Shown piece after piece: positions 36,178-50,628 of a DNA stretch of 64,000 nucleotides. The translations under genes were made by a program, and so were the position numbers. The notes under the pieces were generated by a model that saw nothing but the letters and a program-made list of their open reading frames with translations, was not told where the DNA came from and searched no databases. Numbering within the stretch: position 1 is the first letter of the stretch; every line of letters starts with the position of its first letter. The DNA is taken from contig JBAWZD010000002.1 of the NCBI GenBank assembly GCA_037143195.1, forward strand, positions 72,785-136,784, given 5' to 3'. Origin of the DNA: a bacterium. Lineage in GTDB: Bacteria; Patescibacteriota; Minisyncoccia; Phycocordibacterales; UBA9973.

Positions 36178-36204
36178 GGTAAGACGACAAACGAATGAAA
36201 GAAG

Positions 36205-36240
36205 CAAAAGGCGCGCCCTTCGGGCGCGCCTTTTGTATAC
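36205..36240. terminator. bidirectional GC-hairpin terminator (copy 1 of identical pair)
   Basis: CAAAAGGCGCGCCCTTCGGGCGCGCCTTTTGTAT lies after fusA. Confidence 0.6.
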
Positions 36241-36388
36241 CGAAATGTGCCAATGATGCGTAGCCATATTTTGGTCAGTTTCTTTTTTTGTGTAGTAGTA
36301 TACAATTAAATGAGATTGATTAATTTAGGTTTATGCTAAGAATGAAAAAAATAATTTTAAACAAATATATCTGGGGGCACTATTTTTA

Positions 36389-37210
36389 GTGTGTTTTTGT
36401 CCTGTTACGTTGTTCGCGCAAGTATTATTTGGTGGTGATACTGGTTTTCGTGTCATATTATCCAATCTTACAACTACATCAGTAACAGTAACTATTCCCC
36501 CAGTTACAGGAAAAGTAGAGAAGGACGCGGTGTTTCATTTAAGAGATGCAACTGATAATAAAAATTGGGTCGGTGGGGATACATGGGCAGACCCAGTCGG
36601 TGGTTTCGATTTCGTTCCCTGCTGTACTGTAAAAATTGCGAACGGAACGATAACAAAAACGTTCACCTTGAAGCCCCAACATATTTATAACATTGATGCG
36701 ATGGTAAATTTTGAAAGCGATTTTCAGGACACCGATGCGATAGAATTTAATACAGGCTGCCCAGACTTGCCGGCCGGTCAACAGCGAGTCTCAGGTTCAT
36801 CATGTGACGACCCGAAACTTTCACCACCGGGAACAGTAAAGTCCTCTGGCTCGTCTGGATCTAACGATACAGGAAGTAACTCAACCTCAGGAGGTACTCA
36901 AAATGGAAATACGCTCGATGTAAAAGCATCAGGATTAAATCTCAAATTGAGTCTTGATAATCCAGTTGGTGATATCAAAACGATACCGGATTTTGTTGAG
37001 AAATGCCTAACCGCGGTGATGCTCCTGCTTTCGCCAATTATTGTGATAATGATACTTTATTCTGGATTCCTTTTTGTTACAGCACAGGGAAACTCAGAAA
37101 AGTTACAGACCGCAAAAAGTACGATTTTATACGCACTCATTGGCGCCGCTATCATTATTGGAGCGAAAGGATTTTCAACGGTAGTCGCGTCATTTTTTAG
37201 TCATTCGTAA
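36389..37210 (+). CDS. secreted protein with C-terminal double-TM segment (TrbC/VirB2 pilin-like tail), unknown function
   Basis: N-terminal hydrophobic signal. The C-terminus AVMLLLSPIIVIMILYSGFLFVTAQG...ILYALIGAAIIIGAKGF has two TM helices. The gene is bracketed by identical hairpins at about 36205-36240 and about 37223-37258. Confidence 0.5.
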   Translation: MCFCPVTLFAQVLFGGDTGFRVILSNLTTTSVTVTIPPVTGKVEKDAVFHLRDATDNKNWVGGDTWADPVGGFDFVPCCTVKIANGTITKTFTLKPQHIYNIDAMVNFESDFQDTDAIEFNTGCPDLPAGQQRVSGSSCDDPKLSPPGTVKSSGSSGSNDTGSNSTSGGTQNGNTLDVKASGLNLKLSLDNPVGDIKTIPDFVEKCLTAVMLLLSPIIVIMILYSGFLFVTAQGNSEKLQTAKSTILYALIGAAIIIGAKGFSTVVASFFSHS

Positions 37211-37222
37211 ACGAGAGAATAT

Positions 37223-37258
37223 ATATTTAGCAAAAGGCGCGCCCGAAGGGCGCGCCTT
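37223..37258. terminator. bidirectional GC-hairpin terminator (copy 2, loop inverted relative to copy 1)
   Basis: CAAAAGGCGCGCCCGAAGGGCGCGCCTTTTGTAT. The stem is identical to that of the hairpin at 36205-36240 and the loop is its reverse complement. Confidence 0.6.
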
Positions 37259-37364
37259 TTGTATTTCTCAACAATTCCTTTGCATAAACTTGATACCCAT
37301 TTTGGTAGTCTTTCTATAGCAAATTGTTCGTTGACAGCACTATAGCAATATTGATATATTTACT

Positions 37365-37670
37365 ATGTACCAGAATAAAGTATTAAGAAACGTTTCTGAA
37401 TTTATAAATAATCTTTCAAACAAAGAGCAAGGAAAAGTTCGACTTGCGCTCGATGCGCTACTGTATGGGCACTTTCAATCAGTCCATACTAAAATGCTCC
37501 GCTTTCCGATTCGTGAGTTGATAGTACTAAATTATCGTATTTTATTTTTCATCGAATCTGACGAAATATATTTTGTTTCTGCATTTACAAAAAAGACAGC
37601 CAAAACGCCGCTTCAGGAAATCGAAAATGCATTGCGAATCTATCACTATCTAAAAAACATATGGAAATAA
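37365..37670 (+). CDS. type II toxin, HigB/RelE-superfamily (Gp49-like)
   Basis: IRELIVLNYRILFFIESDEIYFVSAFTKKTAKTPLQEIENA matches the Gp49/HigB signature. It overlaps the downstream HTH gene by 10 nt. Confidence 0.6.
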   Translation: MYQNKVLRNVSEFINNLSNKEQGKVRLALDALLYGHFQSVHTKMLRFPIRELIVLNYRILFFIESDEIYFVSAFTKKTAKTPLQEIENALRIYHYLKNIWK

Positions 37671-37951
37671 TTAACGGGTTGGAATTTTATACAATGGACG
37701 AAGTCTTCAAAAAGGCTTCAAAATCAAAGGCTTTTATCAAGTCCTATAACGAGGAAGCCATGCGCTTAAATCTCGTCGTGGAGATCAAGCGCGTTCGCAA
37801 AGAGAAGAGGATGACCCAGCTCGCAGTAGCAAAGAAAGCCAAAATGCCACAGTCTGTCATCGCTCGCATCGAGAGTGGTCAACACAGCATTTCGCTCGCC
37901 ACACTCAACCGCATTGCTCACGCCCTCGGCAAACGCGTTCAGCTTGTGTAA
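37661..37951 (+). CDS. XRE-family HTH antitoxin (HigA-like)
   Basis: MTQLAVAKKAKMPQSVIARIESGQHSISLATLNRIAHALG is an HTH_3 domain. Confidence 0.65.
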   Translation: MEIINGLEFYTMDEVFKKASKSKAFIKSYNEEAMRLNLVVEIKRVRKEKRMTQLAVAKKAKMPQSVIARIESGQHSISLATLNRIAHALGKRVQLV

Positions 37952-38465
37952 TTCGAGCAAGTGTCGTCTCCTTAAACTCGACGCCGTAGTTTTTTGTGTT
38001 ACTCGTGTGATTTTAGCCTTATTTTGCTAGGTTATAGGATGTTGCGTTGTATAATTGTAAACAAGGTTCACTCATTTGTAAGTATTTCCCGAGAGCAACA
38101 CTGATAATGGGTTGTTTATCGGGGTATATTTATAAGTAACAGGGTCGAACCCCAGCCCTAACAATCATTCTATGATGAATTATTGTCAGTGTGCACAAAA
38201 GTGTGTAGCGTACATAACTCGCAGGAATGGGCAACGTGATTATGCTTATAAGCATGGTTATAAATGTTGGCCTGTACTTGATAAGAGGTCGTGTTCGGTA
38301 CATAACAAAAAACGATAATAGTTATTAATAACTATTATCGCGAAATGAAAAAGTCTCCTCTCTTTGTCCCGATGGGGACTTTTTCTTTTTTACCTCTACA
38401 TGAGAGAGTATAACCTATTATTTTTATTCTCGCTGTGGAAAAATAAAATAAAGGACATTTTTCAG

Positions 38466-38495
38466 TTGACATAGCCCCTAAATCTGCTAATATCA
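38466..38495 (+). promoter_or_regulatory. sigma70-like promoter upstream of tuf (TTGACA-16/17-TAATAT)
   Basis: Near-consensus -35 and -10 hexamers with 16-17 nt spacing lie about 230 nt upstream of the tuf ATG. Confidence 0.4.
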
Positions 38496-38724
38496 ACCTC
38501 GATAGCTCTCCCCAGGCTATTTTTTCGTGCCTGGGTGCGGACTTTCAGACGGTTAGTGGCTGTGGCAGAGGCAGTTTTGTCTTTTATTTCAAGGCTATTT
38601 TCACGAATAGTTCAAAGGCAAGCTTGGTGCCCCTGCTCTCGCCAGTAACCACCCTCGCGCAGGCTCGCGCATTATTAGTTCTTAATTTTATAAGCTTACT
38701 TTACTAAGTAGCTCAAAAAATCAT

Positions 38725-39924
38725 ATGGCAGAAGAATTCAACCGTTCCAAGCCCCATGTCAACGTAGGAACCATCGGTCACGTTGACCACGGCAAAACTA
38801 CTCTTACAGCAGCGATCCTCACGGTTCTTGCTCGACAGGGAAATGGTTACAGTGCAAAGCTCAAGGGTGTTGGAGATATCGACAAGGCTCCTGAAGAAAA
38901 GGCTCGTGGAATCACGATCGCCCTCTCTCACAACGAGTACGAGACTCCTACTCGCCACTACGCTCACATTGACGCTCCAGGACACGCCGACTACATCAAG
39001 AACATGATTACCGGTGCCGCTCAAATGGACGGAGCAATCATCGTTGTTGCTGCGACTGACGGTGTTATGCCACAGACTCGTGAACACATCCTCCTTGCAA
39101 AACAGGTTGGAGTGCCAAAGATCATCGTGTTCCTCAACAAGTGCGACATGGTTGATGATCCAGATCTCATCGAGCTCGTTGAAGAAGAAGTCCGCGAACT
39201 CCTCACCAAGCAGGGCTTCGACGGCGCAGGATGTCCTGTCATCCGTGGTTCAGGTCTCAAGGCTCTCGAGTCTGCAGACAACAATGATCCATGGGCACAG
39301 AAAGTTCTTGAGCTCGCAAACGCTCTCGATACTTACTTCCCACTTCCAGAACGCGACATCACAAAGCCATTCCTCATGCCGGTTGAAGATATCTTCTCAA
39401 TCGAAGGACGCGGAACTGTTGTTACAGGCCGTATCGAGCGTGGAGTTGTGAAGGTTGGTGAAGAAGTTGAAATCGTTGGAATCAAAGATACACAGAAGAC
39501 AACAGTCACTGGTATCGAAATGTTCAACAAGAACCTCAAAGAAGGTATCGCCGGCGACAACGCTGGAATCCTTCTCCGCGGTCTTAAGAAAGAAGACATT
39601 ACTCGTGGACAGGTGCTCGCAAAGATGGGTACTGTGAAGCCTCACTCTGAATTCGAATGTGAAGTTTACATTTTGAAGAAGGAAGAAGGTGGACGTCACA
39701 CTCCATTCTTTAAGGGATACAAGCCTCAGTTCTACGTTCGTACAACTGACGTGACAGGAGATGTCGTGCTTCCAGAAGGAAAGGAAATGGTTATGCCAGG
39801 AGATACAGTAACCCTCAAGGTTAAGCTCGTTACTCCAGTCGCCATGGAACAGGGAATGCGCTTCGCTATCCGCGAAGGAGGCAAGACTGTCGGTGCCGGA
39901 GTCGTAACCAGTATCATCGCGTAG
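38725..39924 (+). CDS. tuf: elongation factor Tu
   Basis: [18 protein letters not shown] and NKCD motifs. Confidence 0.95.
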
Positions 39925-40001: not shown

Positions 40002-40355
40002 ATGGCTACAACAAAAACAAAAAAAACAGCTGAGGCTGCAAAAAGTGGTGAAGTTCGTCTCCGCATCCGCGTTCGAGCCTACGAGAACAAAGTTCTCGAC
40101 AACTCGGTCAAGCAGATCATGGACACAGCACTTCGTCATGACGCAGTCATCGCAGGACCAACACCGCTTCCAACAGAAATCAAAAAGTACACGGTCAACC
40201 GTTCACCATTCATCTACAAGAACACCCGTGAACAGTTTGAAATCCGCGTGCACAAGCGCGTGATTGATATCCTCAATCCAGGTGCAAAAACAATCGAAGC
40301 ACTCACCAGTCTCTCACTCCCAAGTGGTGTCGAGGTGGATGTCAAGATGATGTAG
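40002..40355 (+). CDS. rpsJ: 30S ribosomal protein S10
   Basis: Canonical S10 sequence. Confidence 0.9.
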   Translation: MATTKTKKTAEAAKSGEVRLRIRVRAYENKVLDNSVKQIMDTALRHDAVIAGPTPLPTEIKKYTVNRSPFIYKNTREQFEIRVHKRVIDILNPGAKTIEALTSLSLPSGVEVDVKMM

Positions 40356-40524: not shown

Positions 40525-41142
40525 ATGAAATTCATATTAGGAACAAAACAGAATATGACCGAGTATTTTGCCGAAGACGGCAAAATGCACGCTGCAACGA
40601 TCGTGGCTATTGAGCCAGTCGTCGTTACGCAGATCAAGAACATGGAGAAAGACGGATACACTGCAGTCCAAGTTGGCTATGGAGTCCGCAAGGAAAAGAA
40701 TGTTACCAAGGCTTTGAAAGGTCACTTCGGTGACAACGGTCTCTTCATGTCGACTCGCGAGTTTCGCGTATCAGCAGATGAGGCAGGAAAGATGAACAGT
40801 GGAGACAAACTTACGAGTGAAGTATTTGCTGCCGGTGACGTTGTCACAGTCAGTGGTATCTCAAAGGCGAAAGGTTTCCAAGGTGTCATCAAACGTCATA
40901 ACTTCAAAGGAGGACCTCGTTCACACGGTCAGAAACACTCTGAGCGTGCACCAGGATCCATCGGTGGAGGTCTCCGTAATCGCGTTCCAAAAGGAATGCG
41001 CATGGGAGGACGCATGGGTGGTGAGCGCATCACCGTTTCCAATTTGAAAGTACTTGCTGTTGATGCAGAAACAAACACGCTTCTCATCAGTGGCGCAGTT
41101 CCAGGTCGACGAGGTACTATGCTCGAAATCGTAACGAAGTAA
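40525..41142 (+). CDS. rplC: 50S ribosomal protein L3
   Basis: Canonical L3 sequence. Confidence 0.9.
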   Translation: MKFILGTKQNMTEYFAEDGKMHAATIVAIEPVVVTQIKNMEKDGYTAVQVGYGVRKEKNVTKALKGHFGDNGLFMSTREFRVSADEAGKMNSGDKLTSEVFAAGDVVTVSGISKAKGFQGVIKRHNFKGGPRSHGQKHSERAPGSIGGGLRNRVPKGMRMGGRMGGERITVSNLKVLAVDAETNTLLISGAVPGRRGTMLEIVTK

Positions 41143-41146
41143 TCAT

Positions 41147-41824
41147 ATGAAAAATCCTACATACAACGCAAAAGGCGAAAAGAAAGGAGAGATCAATCTT
41201 CCAGAGAATGTGTTCGGAGTCTCATGGAATGGTGACCTCGTTCACCAAGTACTTCGTGCAATTCGCGCAAACACTCGTGCCGGAACAGCAGATACAAAAG
41301 GACGTGCAGAAGTTCGTGGAGGAGGAAAGAAGCCATGGAAGCAAAAGGGAACAGGACGTGCTCGTCACGGATCATCCCGCTCTCCAATCTGGAAAGGTGG
41401 AGGTGTTACTCATGGACCTCTCGCTGAGAAGAACTACAAACAGAAGGTCAACAAGAAGATGGCAAGCAAGGCTCTTGCAACCGCTCTCTCTGCAAAGATG
41501 AAAGATGGTCAGGTGCTCTTCACAGAGACACTTGGTTTTGGAAAAGCTCCAAAGACACAAGATGCAGCAGCTATCGTTCAGGCATTCGCTAAGATCAATG
41601 GCTTTGAGAAGCTTGCAAAGGCTCGCACTCCAAAGGCAATGGTTGTTATCCCAGCTGTAGACAAAGTATTCTCACAGAGTTTCCGCAACATCCCACAGGT
41701 TTCACTTTCACTCGCCAAGGACCTCAACACGTTTGATGTCCTCAACCACCAGTACGTCATCTTCGTCGATGCTGACGCAAGTGTTGCTACGCTTGAAAAG
41801 CGCTGCACAGTATCAAAGAAGTAA
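41147..41824 (+). CDS. rplD: 50S ribosomal protein L4
   Basis: Canonical L4 sequence. Confidence 0.9.
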   Translation: MKNPTYNAKGEKKGEINLPENVFGVSWNGDLVHQVLRAIRANTRAGTADTKGRAEVRGGGKKPWKQKGTGRARHGSSRSPIWKGGGVTHGPLAEKNYKQKVNKKMASKALATALSAKMKDGQVLFTETLGFGKAPKTQDAAAIVQAFAKINGFEKLAKARTPKAMVVIPAVDKVFSQSFRNIPQVSLSLAKDLNTFDVLNHQYVIFVDADASVATLEKRCTVSKK

Positions 41825-41827
41825 TCT

Positions 41828-42166
41828 ATGGCAACGAAAAAAGTAACCAAAAAAGCTGACAAGAAAGAAGAGAAAGTTGTTGCTCCAAAGAGTTCGATCA
41901 TCTTGAATGCTCGTATCACTGAAAAAGCAGCATTGCTCTCTGAGCAAAACGTGTACACATTCAACGTTGCAGTACATGCAACAAAGAGTGAAATCATCAA
42001 AGCTATCAAAGCGATGTACAAAGTTACTCCAGTTGCTGTTCGCACCGTCAACATGTCCGAGAAAAAGGTCATGCCACGCGGACGCCGAGGCAAAGTAGGT
42101 ACCACCGCAGGTGGACGAAAGGCCTACGTTTATTTGAAAAAGGGCGATAAGATCGAAGTCCTGTAA
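41828..42166 (+). CDS. rplW: 50S ribosomal protein L23
   Basis: Canonical L23 with a Lys-rich N-terminus. Confidence 0.85.
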   Translation: MATKKVTKKADKKEEKVVAPKSSIILNARITEKAALLSEQNVYTFNVAVHATKSEIIKAIKAMYKVTPVAVRTVNMSEKKVMPRGRRGKVGTTAGGRKAYVYLKKGDKIEVL

Positions 42167-42208: not shown

Positions 42209-43051
42209 ATGAAAAAATATTCACCGACAACACCATCACGCCGTCACATGACTACCGTCACGTACCGTGGCGTGATCACAAAATCTGAACCGCATAAGGC
42301 GCTCACCTCAGGTGGCAAGCGCGATATGGGTCGCAACAACCTCGGACGCATTACGGTGCGTCACAAGGGAGGAGGCAACAAGAAGCTCTACCGTGATGTA
42401 GACTTCAGTTTTGACAAGAAAGAAATTCCGGCGAAAGTCGTCTCAGTTGAGTACGATCCATTCCGAACTTCATTCATCTCGCTCGTTGTGTACAAGGACG
42501 GAGAGAAGCGTTACATGCTCACACCGAAGTCTGTTCGCCCAGGCGCAACATTCATCGTTTCAGCAGAAGCAACACTCTCGTCTCCAAACCGTCTCCCGCT
42601 CTCAAAAATCCCTGTTGGTACCTTCGTATACAACATTGAGCTCAAACCGCTTGGCGGGGCCAAATTGGTCCGCTCAGCAGGTAACTTTGCTCAGGTTGTG
42701 GCGAACGACAACGGGTACACGCTTATCAAGCTCCCATCATCAGAAGTCCGCAAGGTATCTGAGAAATGCTGGGCAACGATTGGTGAGGTCTCAAACGAAG
42801 AACATCACCTCGTAAACATTGGTAAGGCTGGACGTTCCCGCCATAAGGGTATTCGACCAACAGTTCGTGGTACTGCCATGAACCCAGTCGACCATCCATA
42901 CGGAGGAGGAGAAGGACGCCAAGGCCGTGGAACACGTCGCCCAAAGACAATGTGGGGAAAGGTCACCGGAGGTCGCAAGACTCGTGGACCAAAGAAATAC
43001 TCAAACCACCTCATCGTCTCACGACGCGTCGTCGGAAAGAAGAAGAAATAA
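42209..43051 (+). CDS. rplB: 50S ribosomal protein L2
   Basis: Canonical L2 sequence. Two strong terminators follow at about 43066-43095 and about 43228-43260. Confidence 0.9.
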   Translation: MKKYSPTTPSRRHMTTVTYRGVITKSEPHKALTSGGKRDMGRNNLGRITVRHKGGGNKKLYRDVDFSFDKKEIPAKVVSVEYDPFRTSFISLVVYKDGEKRYMLTPKSVRPGATFIVSAEATLSSPNRLPLSKIPVGTFVYNIELKPLGGAKLVRSAGNFAQVVANDNGYTLIKLPSSEVRKVSEKCWATIGEVSNEEHHLVNIGKAGRSRHKGIRPTVRGTAMNPVDHPYGGGEGRQGRGTRRPKTMWGKVTGGRKTRGPKKYSNHLIVSRRVVGKKKK

Positions 43052-43065
43052 TTTGCATTACACAC

Positions 43066-43095
43066 AAAAACGCGCCCAGACGGGCGCGTTTTTGC
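43066..43095 (+). terminator. rho-independent terminator after rplB
   Basis: AAAAACGCGCCCAGACGGGCGCGTTTTTGC. A second hairpin lies at about 43228-43260. Confidence 0.6.
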
Positions 43096-43357
43096 TTGAC
43101 TTTTTCACCCCAGAGTACTAAATTAAAAATATGTTCGTCCGAAATACAATTATTAGTACCCTCATTATTATCCGCTCGGCGCGGGGGTCTGCTTTTATTG
43201 TATAAATTTCTTGATTCAATAAAACAAAAGCCCCCGCGTACGCGGGGGCTTTTGTTTTATGAGTTTTGAGCCACAGCTCTCGAGAACCCCAAGATTCTTT
43301 AGAGCTGTGGTCCAAAATGAATGACCACGTATTTTCTTCATTAAAAAACCAAAATTT

Positions 43358-43720
43358 ATGACATCAACCATTAGCCAGCTTTCAATAGCTGGAACTCAAT
43401 TCCAAATCATGCACACGATTGCATGTTCATGTCCTTGGCTTAAGCAAATGCTTAAGCGAGAAGAATTTAAATTAAGTACAGAAACGTTCGTCTTAATGAT
43501 GGCAAACGCCCATATGGCAGGATTGCCAAATGAAATTGAGCATGAATACCCTGTCCAATCCTTTTCTGGATGGACCTTTGTTAAAAGGAAGTACAAATCA
43601 GTCTATCTCGTCTCATACAAGAATCATTTGTATGAGTTCACCGGGGCAGGATTTATTTTCGCTGACCCAGACCGTTATTACGGTGCAGGGGCGATAATTC
43701 TTGCTCCAGCAAGAAAGTAA
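43358..43720 (+). CDS. hypothetical protein (inserted between rplB and rpsS)
   Basis: 120-aa ORF with ATG start and no recognisable motifs. Confidence 0.35.
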   Translation: MTSTISQLSIAGTQFQIMHTIACSCPWLKQMLKREEFKLSTETFVLMMANAHMAGLPNEIEHEYPVQSFSGWTFVKRKYKSVYLVSYKNHLYEFTGAGFIFADPDRYYGAGAIILAPARK

Positions 43721-43796
43721 AACGAAGAAAACAAAACTAAGAAAAAAGACGTGAGCGATTATCTGCTTGCGTCTTTTTCTATGGTACACTTTTCGT

Positions 43797-44189
43797 ATGC
43801 AACCAGGGGAACACAAAAAGCCGTTTAGTTTGCGCAAACGTATTCATCATACAAACCACGCACTTCGCGGAGTGGGGATATTTATCAAAGACACACATGC
43901 TGCGTGGCTTCACCTTTTTTTCGCGCTGCTCGCCGTGTATCTCGGATTCTTGCTTCGTATTTCAAATATGGAATGGATCGTTATTCTCCTCACGATGAGT
44001 CTTATTCTTGCTGCTGAAGCTGTGAATACAGCTATCGAAATTGACGTTGACCTCAAGAGCCCAGAATACAATCCCAAAGCACGTGATATCAAAGACATCG
44101 CCGCTGGCGCCGTACTCATCACTGTCTTCCTCGGGGGAATTATTGGAATGATTATTTTTCTTCCAAAAGTATTCGCACTGTTTTATTAA
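43797..44189 (+). CDS. dgkA: prokaryotic diacylglycerol kinase-like membrane protein
   Basis: Three TM helices and AAEAVNTAIE...IKDIAAGAVL, which is DAGK_prokar-like. The internal ATG was chosen. Confidence 0.6.
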   Translation: MQPGEHKKPFSLRKRIHHTNHALRGVGIFIKDTHAAWLHLFFALLAVYLGFLLRISNMEWIVILLTMSLILAAEAVNTAIEIDVDLKSPEYNPKARDIKDIAAGAVLITVFLGGIIGMIIFLPKVFALFY

Positions 44190-44254
44190 AATATGCAAAA
44201 GAAAAAGCGTGCATTGTGAGTACGCTTTTTCAATTTGAATAATTTCGTCGCTCG

Positions 44255-44794
44255 CTATACAACGAGTTTAGCGCGCAATTTGGCGAGCTTCTTGTCAGTA
44301 CAATCACCGCGTAGCTTGATTGTACCAAGCAGATCTGCCGCCTTCATTAGTCCAGGCTCTTTATCCAGACTAATAATTGAGAGTACTCCCTTAAAATCGA
44401 GGCTGGGAAGAGCACTGAGAAAATTTGAACCATTAATCTCAGCTTCTGTTTTGGTTAAAGAAAAAATTATCACCCGAGGCTTTCTTTTTTCTTGCACCTT
44501 CGGCACCACTCCATAGCCGTCAGTGTTAAAAAATGTTCCTCCATCAAAGTGGAGAAACTGTGCATCGATAATCGACGCACAGTTTTCAGCAAGTGGATTT
44601 TTTTTCACTACTGAAATAAGGTAATCAATTTTTTTAAATTCCTTTACATTGATTAGCACATTTGTAAAAACAGGAAACACTTCTGTTTTTAAAAGGCGCT
44701 TCGTAATGACTTTTTCAAGTTTGTCCTCTTTGTGGATGAGAGCATCGGCAAGTTCCCAAAGGAGGAACGCCTCAAGTTGTTGTTGAGTGAACAT
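44255..44794 (-). CDS. hypothetical protein (opposite strand, inside ribosomal operon)
   Basis: 179-aa ORF. It is the only minus-strand gene within the rplB-rpsS gap. Confidence 0.4.
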   Translation of the reverse strand: MFTQQQLEAFLLWELADALIHKEDKLEKVITKRLLKTEVFPVFTNVLINVKEFKKIDYLISVVKKNPLAENCASIIDAQFLHFDGGTFFNTDGYGVVPKVQEKRKPRVIIFSLTKTEAEINGSNFLSALPSLDFKGVLSIISLDKEPGLMKAADLLGTIKLRGDCTDKKLAKLRAKLVV

Positions 44795-44941
44795 TAGATT
44801 TTAAATTTTTGGTTGACGAAACTCAAATACAAAACTACTATTTCGTCAAATAGGGGAATATGGGAGGTAGGGGATTTGACAATCTCCGCGTTTTTGCTAG
44901 TATGTCTGGACACGGCTCCTCGGAGCTATTTTAATTACTGT

Positions 44942-45289
44942 ATGACACGATCACTCAAAAAAGGACCATATGTAGACGAGCGCCTCATGAAAAAGATTGA
45001 GGGTAAAACAGCGCAAGGTTCCGCTGTTATTAAGACATGGGCACGCGCATGTCAGATTGCCCCAGAGATGGTGGGCTTCACTTTTGGTGTTCACAACGGC
45101 AAGGTGCACGTTGAAGTTCTCGTTACTGAAGACATGGTTGGTCACCGTTTGGGTGAATTTTCTCCTACACGTACATTCCGTAAGCACGGAGGTAAGATGC
45201 AGAAGGAACTTGAAACCAAGCAGAAGGAGAGTGACATCGCCGCTGCTCAGGCTGCAAAGGCTTCTACCGCTGATGCCAAGAAGAAGTAA
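44942..45289 (+). CDS. rpsS: 30S ribosomal protein S19
   Basis: [13 protein letters not shown].... The internal ATG was chosen. A Lys/Ala-rich C-terminal tail is present. Confidence 0.85.
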
Positions 45290-48430: not shown

Positions 48431-48466
48431 TAAAAAACCCGCGAGTGAAAGCTCGCGGTTTTTTTA
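48431..48466 (+). terminator. rho-independent terminator after rplE
   Basis: AAAAAACCCGCGAGTGAAAGCTCGCGGTTTTTTTATT. Confidence 0.6.
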
Positions 48467-48493
48467 TTGCCGTACCTGTGCTATTCTTCGCAT

Positions 48494-49072
48494 ATGCAAA
48501 AGCGCAACATCATCACCATCTGTGGCATGCTTGGTTCGGGCAAATCGACCGCTGCCAAGCGTGTAGCTACCGCACTCGGGTATCCGCACTACTCGGCAGG
48601 GGATTTCATGCGCGCGATGGCGAGCGAACGCGGACTGACGATCATTGAACTCAATTTGCTTGCGGAGAATGACCCTGCCGTTGACCGTGAGATTGATGCC
48701 AAGCAAAAGGCTTTTATGGATACCAACAACAATTTCGTGATTGATTCACGTATTGGATGGTTCTTCGCACAGGACTCATTCAAAGTATTTTTGAACCTCG
48801 ATTTGGATACGGCGAGTGCTCGCGTGTTTGGTGATATTCAAGCCAAGAAATCTGAACGCAAAGAGGAAATGTCTGAGACACTTGAGGCTGTGAAGACACG
48901 ACTCTCTGAACGACTCGCGAGTGAGAAAGAACGCTACAACAAATATTATGCGATTGAAAACTATCAAGACCCGAGTCATTTTGATTTGGTGATTGATACC
49001 AAAACGAACGATATCCCAACGGTTGAGCGAATGATTCTCGACGCATATACGGCGTGGCAAGCGAAGGTATAA
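48494..49072 (+). CDS. cmk: cytidylate kinase-like P-loop NMP kinase
   Basis: ITICGMLGSGKST P-loop, a Cmk-like layout, and a Lys-rich C-terminus. Confidence 0.55.
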   Translation: MQKRNIITICGMLGSGKSTAAKRVATALGYPHYSAGDFMRAMASERGLTIIELNLLAENDPAVDREIDAKQKAFMDTNNNFVIDSRIGWFFAQDSFKVFLNLDLDTASARVFGDIQAKKSERKEEMSETLEAVKTRLSERLASEKERYNKYYAIENYQDPSHFDLVIDTKTNDIPTVERMILDAYTAWQAKV

Positions 49073-49875
49073 AAAACGTATATCGGGTATACAAAGAGTG
49101 GGGAGAGACCCCGCTTGTTTGTTTGGAACGACTCCGTGCGAGAGAAGGAATAGATGCGAATGTGCCAATGACGTATGCTGGCCGACTTGATCCGGCCGCA
49201 GAAGGTGAACTTATCATCCTTGTGGGTGATGAATGCAAAAACAAGGATGCGTATAGCGGGCTCTCAAAAACATACGTTGCTGAAATTCTATTTGGTGTAT
49301 CAACTGACACGTATGATTTACTTGGTCTCCCAAAATTAAGTGAAGCACTCAGCAAATCTTCTTTCAAAAAGGCAACTCGTCGCGCGTGCTCGCGCGCGAG
49401 CTTCTCGGCGCCAAGCGCCTGCGAAAGGCCTTCTTTGAAAGAAGATTTGCTGAGTGCTTACCTTGATTCTCGAATTGGCAAACAAATGCAGATGTATCCA
49501 GCATATTCGTCAAAGACGGTCGGTGGAGTGCAGTTACATGCACACGCGCGGGCGGGGAAGGACGTTGATTTGCCTATACATGAGGTGGAACTCATTGCTT
49601 ACGCCGACCTCACGGTCGGCTTGCGTACTCGAGCCGAAGTAATTGATCGAGTCCGCGATCTCACGAGTATTGTCAAAGGTGATTTTCGTCAGACCGAAAT
49701 TCTTGAATCGTGGACGAGTCTTGTAACTGAATTGCCCGAGGAACTACTTGCCGTGAAAGTACACCTTACTGTTTCAAGCGGATTTTATATACGCCAATTT
49801 GCTCATGACATCGGGGAAGTTTTTGGTGCTGACACTTGTTTGTATTCGCTCGTGCGAAATCACATTGAGCAGTAG
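49054..49875 (+). CDS. truB: TruB-family pseudouridine synthase carrying an in-frame 63-bp repeat insertion
   Basis: YAGRLDPAAEGELIILVGD is the catalytic Asp motif. KTYVAEILFGVSTDTYD and MYPAYSSK are also present. The GTG start overlaps the cmk stop. A 63-bp dispersed-repeat core at 49371-49433 is inserted in-frame. Confidence 0.7.
   Translation: MASEGIKNVYRVYKEWGETPLVCLERLRAREGIDANVPMTYAGRLDPAAEGELIILVGDECKNKDAYSGLSKTYVAEILFGVSTDTYDLLGLPKLSEALSKSSFKKATRRACSRASFSAPSACERPSLKEDLLSAYLDSRIGKQMQMYPAYSSKTVGGVQLHAHARAGKDVDLPIHEVELIAYADLTVGLRTRAEVIDRVRDLTSIVKGDFRQTEILESWTSLVTELPEELLAVKVHLTVSSGFYIRQFAHDIGEVFGADTCLYSLVRNHIEQ
49351..49452. repeat. 63-bp-family dispersed repeat copy (49371-49433) flanked by 18-bp perfect inverted repeat, located in-frame inside truB
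   Basis: GGCAACTCGTCGCGCGTGCTCGCGCGCGAGCTTCTCGGCGCCAAGCGCCTGCGAAAGGCCTTC, with flanks AGCAAATCTTCTTTCAAA and TTTGAAAGAAGATTTGCT. Confidence 0.75.
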
Positions 49876-49931
49876 ATGCTAAAACAGACACTAAATGATA
49901 GTGTCTGTTTAAGAATAAGGTTGAGGGGCTG

Positions 49932-50201
49932 TTACTTGCGAAAGAAAAATAACTGAAACATTGTTGAGGCTATGATCATTCCTGCTACGACGAACAGGAC
50001 GAATGTCCCCTTTTTTCTTTTAGCGAATCCGTATGCTCCAAGTAGGAGCATTATTTCGCTGGCTCCGATTGGAACCAGGAAGAAAAATAGAAACCTTAAT
50101 GGCAGAATTGTTGGTATTGTGAATACCAACACACTCTGTACTAGAGTCGTGAAGTGCCCGAGCAGTGCTCCGGGACTTAGTAAATTTTTAGTTGAGAACA
50201 T
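49932..50201 (-). CDS. small membrane protein
   Basis: 89 aa with two or three TM helices. Confidence 0.4.
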   Translation of the reverse strand: MFSTKNLLSPGALLGHFTTLVQSVLVFTIPTILPLRFLFFFLVPIGASEIMLLLGAYGFAKRKKGTFVLFVVAGMIIASTMFQLFFFRK

Positions 50202-50283
50202 AACTATTTTTTTGGTTTAATTATATTATACACCCTAGAAGTAAATATGTCAAGGTTAGACAATGAGTCTCTCAGTGCTGGGT

Positions 50284-50311
50284 AAGGTGAGTTGACACGA
50301 AGCAAAAATCT
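50284..50311 (+). promoter_or_regulatory. sigma70-like promoter (TTGACA-16-TAATAT) restarting ribosomal operon at rpsZ
   Basis: Consensus hexamers lie about 130 nt upstream of rpsZ, and the leader has predicted stem-loops. Confidence 0.4.
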
Positions 50312-50442
50312 GATAATATGAGCGTCGAGGCAGATTAAGTCAGTGGCGTCCGTTTTTCTCCTTTAGTTTCCTAGGTTTCTCCTGCTCTAGGGATATAAAG
50401 AACAAACACGTGATACGCGCTGGCGGGCCTCCTATTTTCACT

Positions 50443-50628
50443 ATGGCAAAGACATCAACAAAATATCGCGCTACGCGCACGCCGAAGTTCTCTACACGGG
50501 CGAAGAATCGTTGTTTTAAGTGTGGCCGAGGTCGAGGTTTTATGCGTGATTTCGGACTATGTCGAATCTGTTTCCGTGAACTTGCCAATGAAGGCATGAT
50601 CCCGGGCGTCCGTAAGTCGTCTTGGTAA
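50443..50628 (+). CDS. rpsZ: 30S ribosomal protein S14 type Z (zinc-binding)
   Basis: 61 aa with C..C...C..C (CFKCGRG...CRICFRE). Confidence 0.85.

Follow-up and report, generated by a model that had tools for sequence, protein, structure and literature searches.

Few bacterial gene arrangements are more conserved than the S10 operon, and its integrity is usually presumed. In a 64-kb stretch of DNA (hereafter the window) from a metagenome-assembled genome (MAG) of a Nomurabacteria-like bacterium belonging to the candidate phyla radiation (CPR; Patescibacteria), whose genes carry the NCBI locus tags WCG55_028xx, this operon is interrupted between rplB and rpsS by a spacer of 1,890 bp (43052-44941) that holds three non-ribosomal genes. 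A first-pass annotation of the same DNA had proposed that foreign genes recently colonised an intact operon. Comparison with related genomes points to a different explanation: the rplB-rpsS junction is probably a true operon boundary throughout the family, the S10-spc cluster being divided into three separately transcribed modules and the joint acting as a permissive hot spot for accessory genes.

The genes upstream of the spacer, all on the plus strand and identified from the open reading frame (ORF) listing and from Pfam and NCBIfam scans, are tuf (38725-39924), rpsJ (40002-40355), rplC (40525-41142), rplD (41147-41824), rplW (41828-42166) and rplB (42209-43051), the last encoding uL2 (L2_N 1e-29, L2_C 1e-51). 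Downstream, rpsS (44942-45289, plus strand), which encodes uS19 (Ribosomal_S19 5e-34), is followed on the same strand by rplV, rpsC, rplP (to 46870), rpsQ (from 46879), rplN, rplX and rplE (to 48430). A 158-amino acid (aa) ORF starting with TTG at 44813 was rejected as the rpsS reading frame, being an over-extension of the gene whose true start is 44942. The order of the S10 genes is thus kept with rpmC missing, and the few nucleotides (nt) that part rpsS from rplB in a canonical contiguous S10 operon are replaced by 1,890 bp. Within the spacer lie an ORF of 120 aa (hyp120; 43358-43720, plus strand), a dgkA-family lipid kinase gene (43797-44189, plus strand) and an ORF of 179 aa on the minus strand (hyp179; 44255-44794). 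This 1.9-kb interruption and its three non-ribosomal genes had been described in the first-pass annotation, and every element was found where it had been placed.

The same gene order was recovered in two further independent assemblies. The nearest species representative, L001 (CAITQP010000009), has the same three insert genes and is ~93% identical to the window in nucleotide sequence across the whole region, with 100% aa identity in uL2. A third, independently assembled lineage, represented by L081-L086 from several samples of the ENA GROS21 metagenomes, shows the end of rplB followed by a hyp120 homologue of 123 aa, by dgkA, by hyp179 in minus-strand orientation and by rpsS. Since both assemblies preserve this order, the arrangement of the insert is real, not an assembly artefact, and is common to a genus-level group.

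To place the junction in a wider context, relatives were collected as 80 loci through a uL2 protein scan with one genome per GTDB species. All 80 belong to Nomurabacteria/Paceibacterota-type CPR MAGs (uL2 identity 71-100%), and 68 of them hold both rplB and rpsS. Across these 68 loci, the distance between rplB and rpsS varies between 39 and 7,346 bp (median 713 bp) and is greater than 75 bp in 67 loci, 300 bp in 52 and 1 kb in 23. Metagenome loci that also include rplB (n = 73) gave a comparable range of 69-3,139 nt (median 532 nt). Thirteen other ribosomal-protein junctions are tight, with medians of -48 to 96 nt and of ~231 nt at the rpmC slot. At these junctions, spacings of more than 300 nt are confined to six loci at the rpmC slot (L16-S17) and to one locus each at three others, with no spacing greater than 1 kb. 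The exception, equally variable, is the interval from rplE to rpsH, which spans rpsN (median 1,295 nt); the rplE-rpsN gap measured directly is 148-2,954 nt. Because only rplB-rpsS and rplE-rpsN vary in this way while the remaining junctions stay tight, the cluster resolves into three rigid blocks and two hypervariable joints.

The DNA directly after rplB is consistent with the end of a transcription unit. T1 (43065-43094, plus strand), an intrinsic terminator immediately downstream of rplB, has a 13-bp stem (-23.5 kcal/mol, z -6.6) that is identical in the window, L001 and L081 and is followed by a U-run. T2 (43222-43257, plus strand), of bidirectional design, has a 16-bp stem (-28.8 kcal/mol, z -6.5), a U-run and A/U tracts on both sides. 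A long hairpin that lacks a U-run (43266-43315, plus strand; -25.8 kcal/mol, z -7.5) comes next, upstream of hyp120, and has a conserved stem and a variable loop in the three genomes. Hairpin significance was assessed by z-scores and 200 shuffles per hairpin, and for these three, described earlier as two strong terminators and a third hairpin, none of the 200 shuffles folded as well. The feature extends across the family. In an RNAfold scan for hairpins of -8 kcal/mol or below that end at a T-run no more than 130 nt after a gene, a terminator-like hairpin was found after rplB in 66/79 loci and after rplE in 23/58 loci. After S10, L3, L23, S19, S3, L16, L14 or S8, the corresponding figure is 2-9 of 39-79 loci.

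Transcription appears to be restarted before rpsS. A predicted promoter, TTGACA-16-TAGTAT, with a TG extension and a near-consensus extended -10, lies 39 nt upstream of rpsS in the window (44876-44903, plus strand), and a promoter of the form TTGAC[AT]-16-TAnTAT occurs 56-144 nt before rpsS in 62/68 loci. It is followed, where the transcript is predicted to begin or close to that point, by a short leader hairpin (GGCUC-CUCG-GAGCU; 44914-44927, plus strand) and a U-rich run. In the family alignment, TTGAC is invariant, the extended -10 reads TTTGCTAnTAT and, ~8-11 nt further on, a hairpin of the form RGCUC-loop-GAGCY precedes U5; the motif as a whole allows 5-12 nt between the two. Pairing is retained in 93% of the cells of the hairpin alignment, with outer pairs swapping among AU, GC and GU and the core sequence invariant. 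In silico, the region does not form a single transcription unit, as T1, T2 and the rpsS promoter all stand between rplB and rpsS. The first-pass claim of a transcriptionally split operon is supported by these predictions, given the frequency of terminators and promoters across the family and the retention of both in close relatives.

The combined promoter-hairpin motif is closely tied to its position, heading the rpsS module in 59/68 genomes. A strict regular expression for promoter plus hairpin gave 60 matches in 1.13 Mb searched on both strands, of which 59 lie directly before rpsS and one before tuf. When metagenomes were scanned with a pattern consisting of the -10 element and the hairpin, using no protein information, 120 stretches were returned (L091-L210). 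rpsS begins within 250 nt downstream in 109/120 of these and within 400 nt in 2 more; among the remainder, 6 are too near a contig end, 2 precede rpsN/rpsH and 1 precedes an S12-like start. In the window, a looser copy of the motif precedes tuf (38466-38525), and extended -10 promoters of the rpsS type number four only, all on the plus strand and all within the ribosomal cluster: 38466 (tuf), 44876 (rpsS), 50292 (rpsN) and 55459. The last presumably belongs to the alpha-operon region further downstream in the cluster.

Thus, on sequence and comparative evidence, the split is old, fixed and family-wide, since the junction is open and its terminator and promoter are conserved even where no insert is present, and it does not represent the recent invasion of an intact operon. 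The first-pass annotation had also held that finding the same three genes at this junction throughout the lineage would mark the arrangement as old. It is the break that proved to be lineage-wide; the three-gene content is not.

What occupies the gap varies considerably among relatives. Of the 124 ORFs encoded between rplB and rpsS, 102 are singletons. Pfam families recognised among them include orotidine monophosphate (OMP) decarboxylase, phosphoribosyltransferase (PRTase) and dihydroorotate dehydrogenase (DHODH) of pyrimidine metabolism, as well as glutamate kinase, aldehyde dehydrogenase and pyrroline-5-carboxylate (P5C) reductase of proline metabolism. M19 dipeptidase, VIT1, GH9, FTR1, a Mur ligase and a HigB/HigA-like Gp49/HTH toxin-antitoxin pair were also found, and the gap ORFs of the relatives contain one IS200-type transposase. 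On a rough neighbour-joining (NJ) tree built from a concatenation of nine ribosomal proteins, sister genomes often have very different gap lengths (163 vs 1,307, 157 vs 1,647 and 181 vs 7,346 bp). The same two core genes therefore flank non-homologous content in different genomes, as expected of a core-flanked hot spot. In gaps of ~100-140 bp (L039, L040, L059, L062, L067 and L051), the terminator is followed immediately by the rpsS promoter. Many gaps of several hundred bp contain no ORF of at least 50 aa, such as those of L050 (645 bp) and L058 (702 bp); gene remnants, small RNAs or small ORFs are possible contents.

These observations are best explained by a scheme of three modules, extending from tuf to rplB, from rpsS to rplE and from rpsN to secY. 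Module 1 would end at T1, which T2 would back up while also terminating a small internal unit, and module 2 would restart from its own extended -10 promoter at 44876, its transcript opening with the short hairpin and U-run. DNA lying between terminator and promoter would be insulated, so that insertions there would not be polar on the essential genes that flank it. The rplB|rpsS boundary would thereby tolerate insertions and turn into a hot spot at which genes are gained, lost and replaced, with the near-invariant flanking ribosomal genes probably acting as homologous-recombination arms. Since insertions between T1 and the rpsS promoter would be nearly neutral, the content of the gap would turn over. 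In the genus of the window, the slot comprises a conserved 306-nt regulatory spacer, hyp120 and dgkA on the plus strand and, starting divergently by itself on the minus strand, hyp179; dgkA would be a native lipid-recycling kinase that has resided at the junction since the ancestor of the clade.

Several points weigh against this scheme. Gene identities, hairpins, motif conservation and comparative statistics are observed, and we infer from them how termination, initiation and recombination actually proceed and what role the leader hairpin plays; the terminators and promoters were predicted from sequence, and sigma-70-like rules were assumed for a CPR lineage. T1 and T2 may be subject to read-through. 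The gaps at L060 (39 bp) and L072 (79 bp) are very short and no rpsS promoter is detectable at L060, so the split may have been reversed or may not be universal. Many gaps of 400-900 bp (loci L013-L080) are without a convincing ORF. The comparison covers relatives with uL2 identity of at least 71%, and the gene-to-gene changes in closest relationship within the insert, described below, could reflect gene-specific rate variation instead of recombination arms.

The product of dgkA, taken as 130 aa from an ATG in preference to a 140-aa ORF from a TTG, matches PF01219 over model positions 2-102 of 102 (1.1e-29; 102.7 bits vs a cutoff of 22.3) and also matches E. coli DgkA structures, though no NCBIfam model matches it at E ≤ 0.01. 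Residues E74, N77, E81, K99 and D100 correspond to the catalytic and Mg-ATP residues E69, N72, E76, K94 and D95 of E. coli and show no variation among the window protein, seven relatives encoded in gaps and the E. coli enzyme. The protein therefore resembles E. coli DgkA in its full-length domain and in keeping the catalytic Glu/Asn/Glu/Lys/Asp set, but the two share only 23% identity and the equivalent of E28-E34 is shortened or divergent. The product would be a diacylglycerol or undecaprenol kinase, either of which fits a lipid-recycling organism. The ratio of nonsynonymous to synonymous substitution rates (dN/dS) of the gene is ~0.03.

Homologues of dgkA form a graded series from 93% to ~45% identity that includes named Nomurabacteria proteins. 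The gene occurs in the rplB-rpsS gap of L001, L003, L006, L007, L011, L019, L037 and L087, directly after rplB or before rpsS, and elsewhere in L088 and L089; on the NJ tree, its presence in the gap spans the base of the clade to which the window belongs. Because of this graded series, the recurrence in the gap and the distribution on the tree, dgkA is best regarded, on the sequences compared, as a native gene of the lineage that took up residence at the joint early on and has since disappeared from it in some descendants. The earlier view of dgkA as foreign is thus not sustained. Of the recency ascribed to the inserted genes, only part stands: hyp120 and hyp179 are confined to three sister lineages, whereas dgkA is a long-standing resident.

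The repeated presence of dgkA at this site, co-oriented with the ribosomal genes and often adjoining rplB or rpsS, is what would be expected if the inserted genes were functional additions to the operon, with dgkA, alone or together with the lineage-specific ORFs, read through from rplB to couple lipid recycling to growth. The hairpin between hyp120 and dgkA, which leaves dgkA without space for a promoter of its own, also fits this explanation. However, T1 and T2 part rplB from hyp120-dgkA, a separate promoter-like site is found at 43096, dgkA lies elsewhere in other Nomurabacteria and is missing from the gap in most, and hyp179 is on the opposite strand. Read-through of this kind is accordingly considered unlikely.

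The idea that a foreign island of three genes was recently inserted by horizontal transfer into a formerly intact S10 operon, which it then split, fares somewhat worse and is regarded as improbable, most of it being already refuted by synteny. The restricted distribution of hyp120 and hyp179 is in keeping with it, as is their GC content, which is slightly low at 40-41% compared with 46.3 ± 3.9% for the window. In addition, an exact 12-nt direct repeat, CGCGTTTTTGCT, is found at both edges of the insert, in the descending arm of T1 (43085-43096) and in the spacer of the rpsS promoter (44887-44898). This repeat could be a trace of the origin of the insert or could have arisen by chance, as ~0.1-0.2 such 12-mers are expected in 2.2 kb. 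The insertion account is opposed by the open junction in 67/68 genome loci and 73/73 metagenome loci, with terminator and promoter present even in those without the insert, and by the long residence of native dgkA at the site. Moreover, none of the three insert genes encodes an integrase, transposase or recombinase domain, neither an integrase nor a transposase adjoins the insert, no tRNA was found in the window, and the insert itself gave no transfer-messenger RNA (tmRNA) or phage DNA match.

The two remaining genes are restricted to the genus. A word-indexed search of 5.8e9 proteins returned 2 homologues of hyp120, to which the 123-aa protein of L081 (50% identity) is added, and 3 of hyp179; a HMMER profile made from the hyp179 alignment, when searched against 1.84e9 representatives, recovered only its own family. 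Neither protein gave a significant match in Pfam, NCBIfam, PADLOC, PHROGs or PDB sequence and profile searches, nor any homology to small or minus-strand ORFs at the equivalent position in relatives (phmmer --max). AlphaFold2 models are unreliable, with mean predicted local distance difference test (pLDDT) scores of 46 for hyp120 and 44 for hyp179. All copies of hyp179 are 179 aa long without indels at 53-70% identity, and dN/dS is 0.15 for hyp120 and 0.10-0.20 for hyp179. Since lengths are conserved, hyp179 is free of indels and dN/dS is 0.10-0.20, hyp120 and hyp179 are judged, on these comparisons, to be real genes under purifying selection that are young and lineage-specific. Lack of homologues outside the genus, of domains and of model confidence, together with the ORF-free gaps of 400-900 bp in many relatives, could suggest chance ORFs in a decaying spacer, leaving dgkA plus junk as the insert, but this is very improbable, as both frames remain intact in three lineages despite 30-50% aa divergence, selection is evident in the dN/dS values, and both genes lie between conserved terminators or promoter-like sites. 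As no transmembrane segments are apparent in their sequences, the best guess is that both encode lineage-specific soluble accessory proteins. A diversity-generating retroelement was also considered for these genes and rejected, as divergence is gene-wide and dN/dS is well below 1.

Synonymous divergence (dS) was calibrated with neighbouring genes, which gave 0.05-0.29 for ribosomal genes, 0.37 for fusA, 0.51 for dgkA, 0.77 for cmk and 0.87 for truB; the values for hyp120 and hyp179 are 1.0 and ~3.6 (saturated). By this calibration, the rate of hyp120 is ordinary and hyp179 is the fastest-evolving gene of the region. The possibility that hyp120 and hyp179 are ancient alleles was dropped, as high dS is no proof of it after calibration with neighbours, and only the claim of a mosaic was kept. 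This claim concerns the closest pair among the three genomes, which is the window with L001 for hyp120 (74% aa identity vs 50% and 43% for the other pairs), L001 with L081 for dgkA and rpsS, and the window with L081 for hyp179 (70% aa identity vs 53% and 56%). Because the closest pair changes from gene to gene, recombination within the island is suggested, a suggestion drawn from three taxa.

The spacers of the insert are better conserved than the two ORFs. The first intergenic piece (43052-43357, 306 nt) and the 147-nt spacer between hyp179 and rpsS show 89-90% identity across the three sister genomes and the hyp120-dgkA spacer shows 79-84%, so that the intergenic pieces overall span 79-90%; nucleotide identity is 57-77% for hyp120 and 60-76% for hyp179. 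As spacer identity is well above the neutral expectation at dS of at least 0.5, the regulatory spacers are considered to be under constraint.

The function of the leader hairpin before rpsS can be approached through comparison with known elements. It most simply represents a 5′ stabiliser, an operator or attenuator of module 2, or both. Short conserved hairpins at predicted mRNA 5′ ends are shared with stabilising stem-loops of the ompA/aprE type and with ribosomal-protein leader operators. The rpsS hairpin is not known to have a protein partner; it falls far short of known ribosomal-protein leaders in length, runs into a U-run in the way of a mini-terminator, and is not in Rfam. The promoter-hairpin motif is a candidate either for a 5′ stabiliser or for a new ribosomal-protein leader. 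In some genomes, the hairpin 3′ arm places its GGAG 9-10 nt ahead of the ATG, at Shine-Dalgarno spacing, whereas in most genomes, including that of the window, it is too far upstream for this role. Across the 64-kb window, no Rfam family reached its gathering score, including the S10 leader and other ribosomal-protein leaders.

In E. coli, the S10 (rpsJ...rpsQ) and spc (rplN...rpmJ) operons are subject to L4- and S8-mediated autoregulation. The family examined here has the same genes in the same relative order, likewise in multi-gene units with a strong promoter and a structured leader, but differs in that the boundaries fall at rplB|rpsS and rplE|rpsN instead of rpsQ|rplN and, in the window, rpmC is missing. 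No S10-leader match exists in the window, a different short 5′ hairpin being found on module 2, and accessory genes lie inside a stretch that E. coli keeps as one operon. It is conceivable, though doubtful, that the split module 2 lost feedback sites of the L4 and S8 type and gained the leader hairpin as a minimal cis-regulator, either a new operator/attenuator or a stabiliser, with the two fission points becoming sites of recombination-driven accessory-gene exchange.

The core-gene-flanked integration hot spots of bacterial pangenomes reportedly described by Oliveira and colleagues (Nat Commun, 2017) offer a second comparison. Both consist of a fixed core-gene interval that holds different accessory genes in each genome and few or no mobility genes. 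The present hot spot differs in its ribosomal-protein flanks, its tiny CPR genome and its conserved terminator-promoter delimiters. Syntenic ribosomal-protein blocks are used for the binning and phylogeny of uncultured lineages, and the locus serves as a warning that ribosomal contigs of these CPR organisms bear lineage-specific cargo.

Multigene insertions between concatenated translation operons have been described in Gammaproteobacteria and Bacilli (Brandis, 2021, PMC8046335; Brandis et al., PMC6735719). The cases treated in detail mostly respect canonical operon boundaries; nrdHEF, which sits within rpoBC (rplL-rsmC), does not. Each represents a single clade-level event, and synteny is relaxed after insertion (PMC8046335). 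In contrast to these cases, the site described here lies inside the canonical S10 operon and its content turns over between sister genomes. Literature searches returned no account of the rplB|rpsS break or of the rpsS leader motif in CPR. The locus would thus combine operon fission with a core-flanked hot spot in an unusual place and an unusual lineage, while the three-gene insert itself is ordinary cargo. The family-wide shift of the boundary amounts to a natural experiment on what keeps ribosomal operons together, the rpsS motif provides a candidate leader element for ribosomal-protein regulation, and the joints mark points of accessory-gene entry in genomes with very few mobile elements.

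Further potential regulatory elements are located within the spacer. A promoter-like site, TTGACT-17-TAAATT (43096-43124, plus strand; 9/12 matches), has hexamers that are kept and a spacer that varies among the three genomes, and would function as a promoter. It precedes a 24-codon Ile-rich small ORF, MFVRNTIISTLIIIRSARGSAFIV (43131-43205, plus strand), which is intact in the window, L001 and L081 with some synonymous changes and may encode a leader peptide or a small protein, perhaps leaderless. The stretch 43179-43199 resembles the 3′ arm of T2 and can pair with the T2 5′ arm (-26.5 kcal/mol) in the manner of an antiterminator, an alternative pairing that resembles those of leader-peptide attenuators. 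The elements of an attenuator (promoter, short ORF, terminator and mutually exclusive antiterminator) can therefore be drawn at 43096-43260, although the antiterminator has a mismatch in its AU helix in 2/3 genomes, and Rfam matches to the His, Thr and Leu leaders there are sub-threshold (27-39 bits vs gathering scores of 49-55). All sub-threshold Rfam matches at 43100-43340 are to terminator-bearing leaders and small RNAs, on both strands, and were rejected as reflections of T2.

Two further hairpins and an inverted repeat complete the inventory of the spacer. Between hyp120 and dgkA, a hairpin with a U-run (43740-43780, plus strand; -19.4 kcal/mol, z -5.3) is conserved in the three genomes and could be read as a leaky terminator or as a processing or stability element. 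The convergent dgkA and hyp179 share a conserved bidirectional terminator (44201-44231; -16.6 kcal/mol on the plus strand and -12.4 kcal/mol on the minus strand) with U-runs on both strands. These two hairpins and the rpsS promoter had been absent from the first-pass annotation. Between the divergent starts of hyp179 and rpsS, a 9-bp inverted repeat was read from the sequence, TTGACGAAA-N19-TTTCGTCAA (44813-44849), whose arms are conserved and whose centre is variable in the three genomes; it may serve as an operator or fold into a hairpin.

With respect to rpmC, no tblastn match to uL29 was found anywhere in the 64-kb window, where rplP and rpsQ are separated by 8 nt. An rpmC-like match is present in 56/80 related loci, and the median rplP-rpsQ spacing of 231 nt fits rpmC lying there in most loci. 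The gene is also missing at L001, L008, L009, L020, L039 and L046. Lineage-specific loss of uL29 is already known in CPR (PMC9297842).

A second break in the ribosomal cluster is found at rplE|rpsN (48431-50442). A terminator after rplE (48439-48458) is followed by a gene resembling archaeal-type (d)CMP kinases (48467-49072), a divergent truB-like gene (49054-49875), an 89-aa hydrophobic ORF on the minus strand (49932-50201) and a promoter (50292-50319) ahead of rpsN, which starts at 50443. A promoter is found upstream of rpsN in 41/42 loci and a motif of the TTTTCTCC type in 37/42. The truB-like gene has a weak, two-piece TruB match (TIGR00431, 77.6 bits vs a cutoff of 151) and is 70% identical to its L001 orthologue (dN 0.22), consistent with a fast-evolving or degenerate pseudouridine synthase. 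A third variable spacer of the translation cluster lies at fusA|tuf (36178-38724) and encodes a type IV secretion system (T4SS)-pilin-like protein (36389-37210; PF18895), the gene for which is absent from L001, as well as a Gp49/HigB-like toxin (37365-37670) and an HTH_3 antitoxin (37661-37951).

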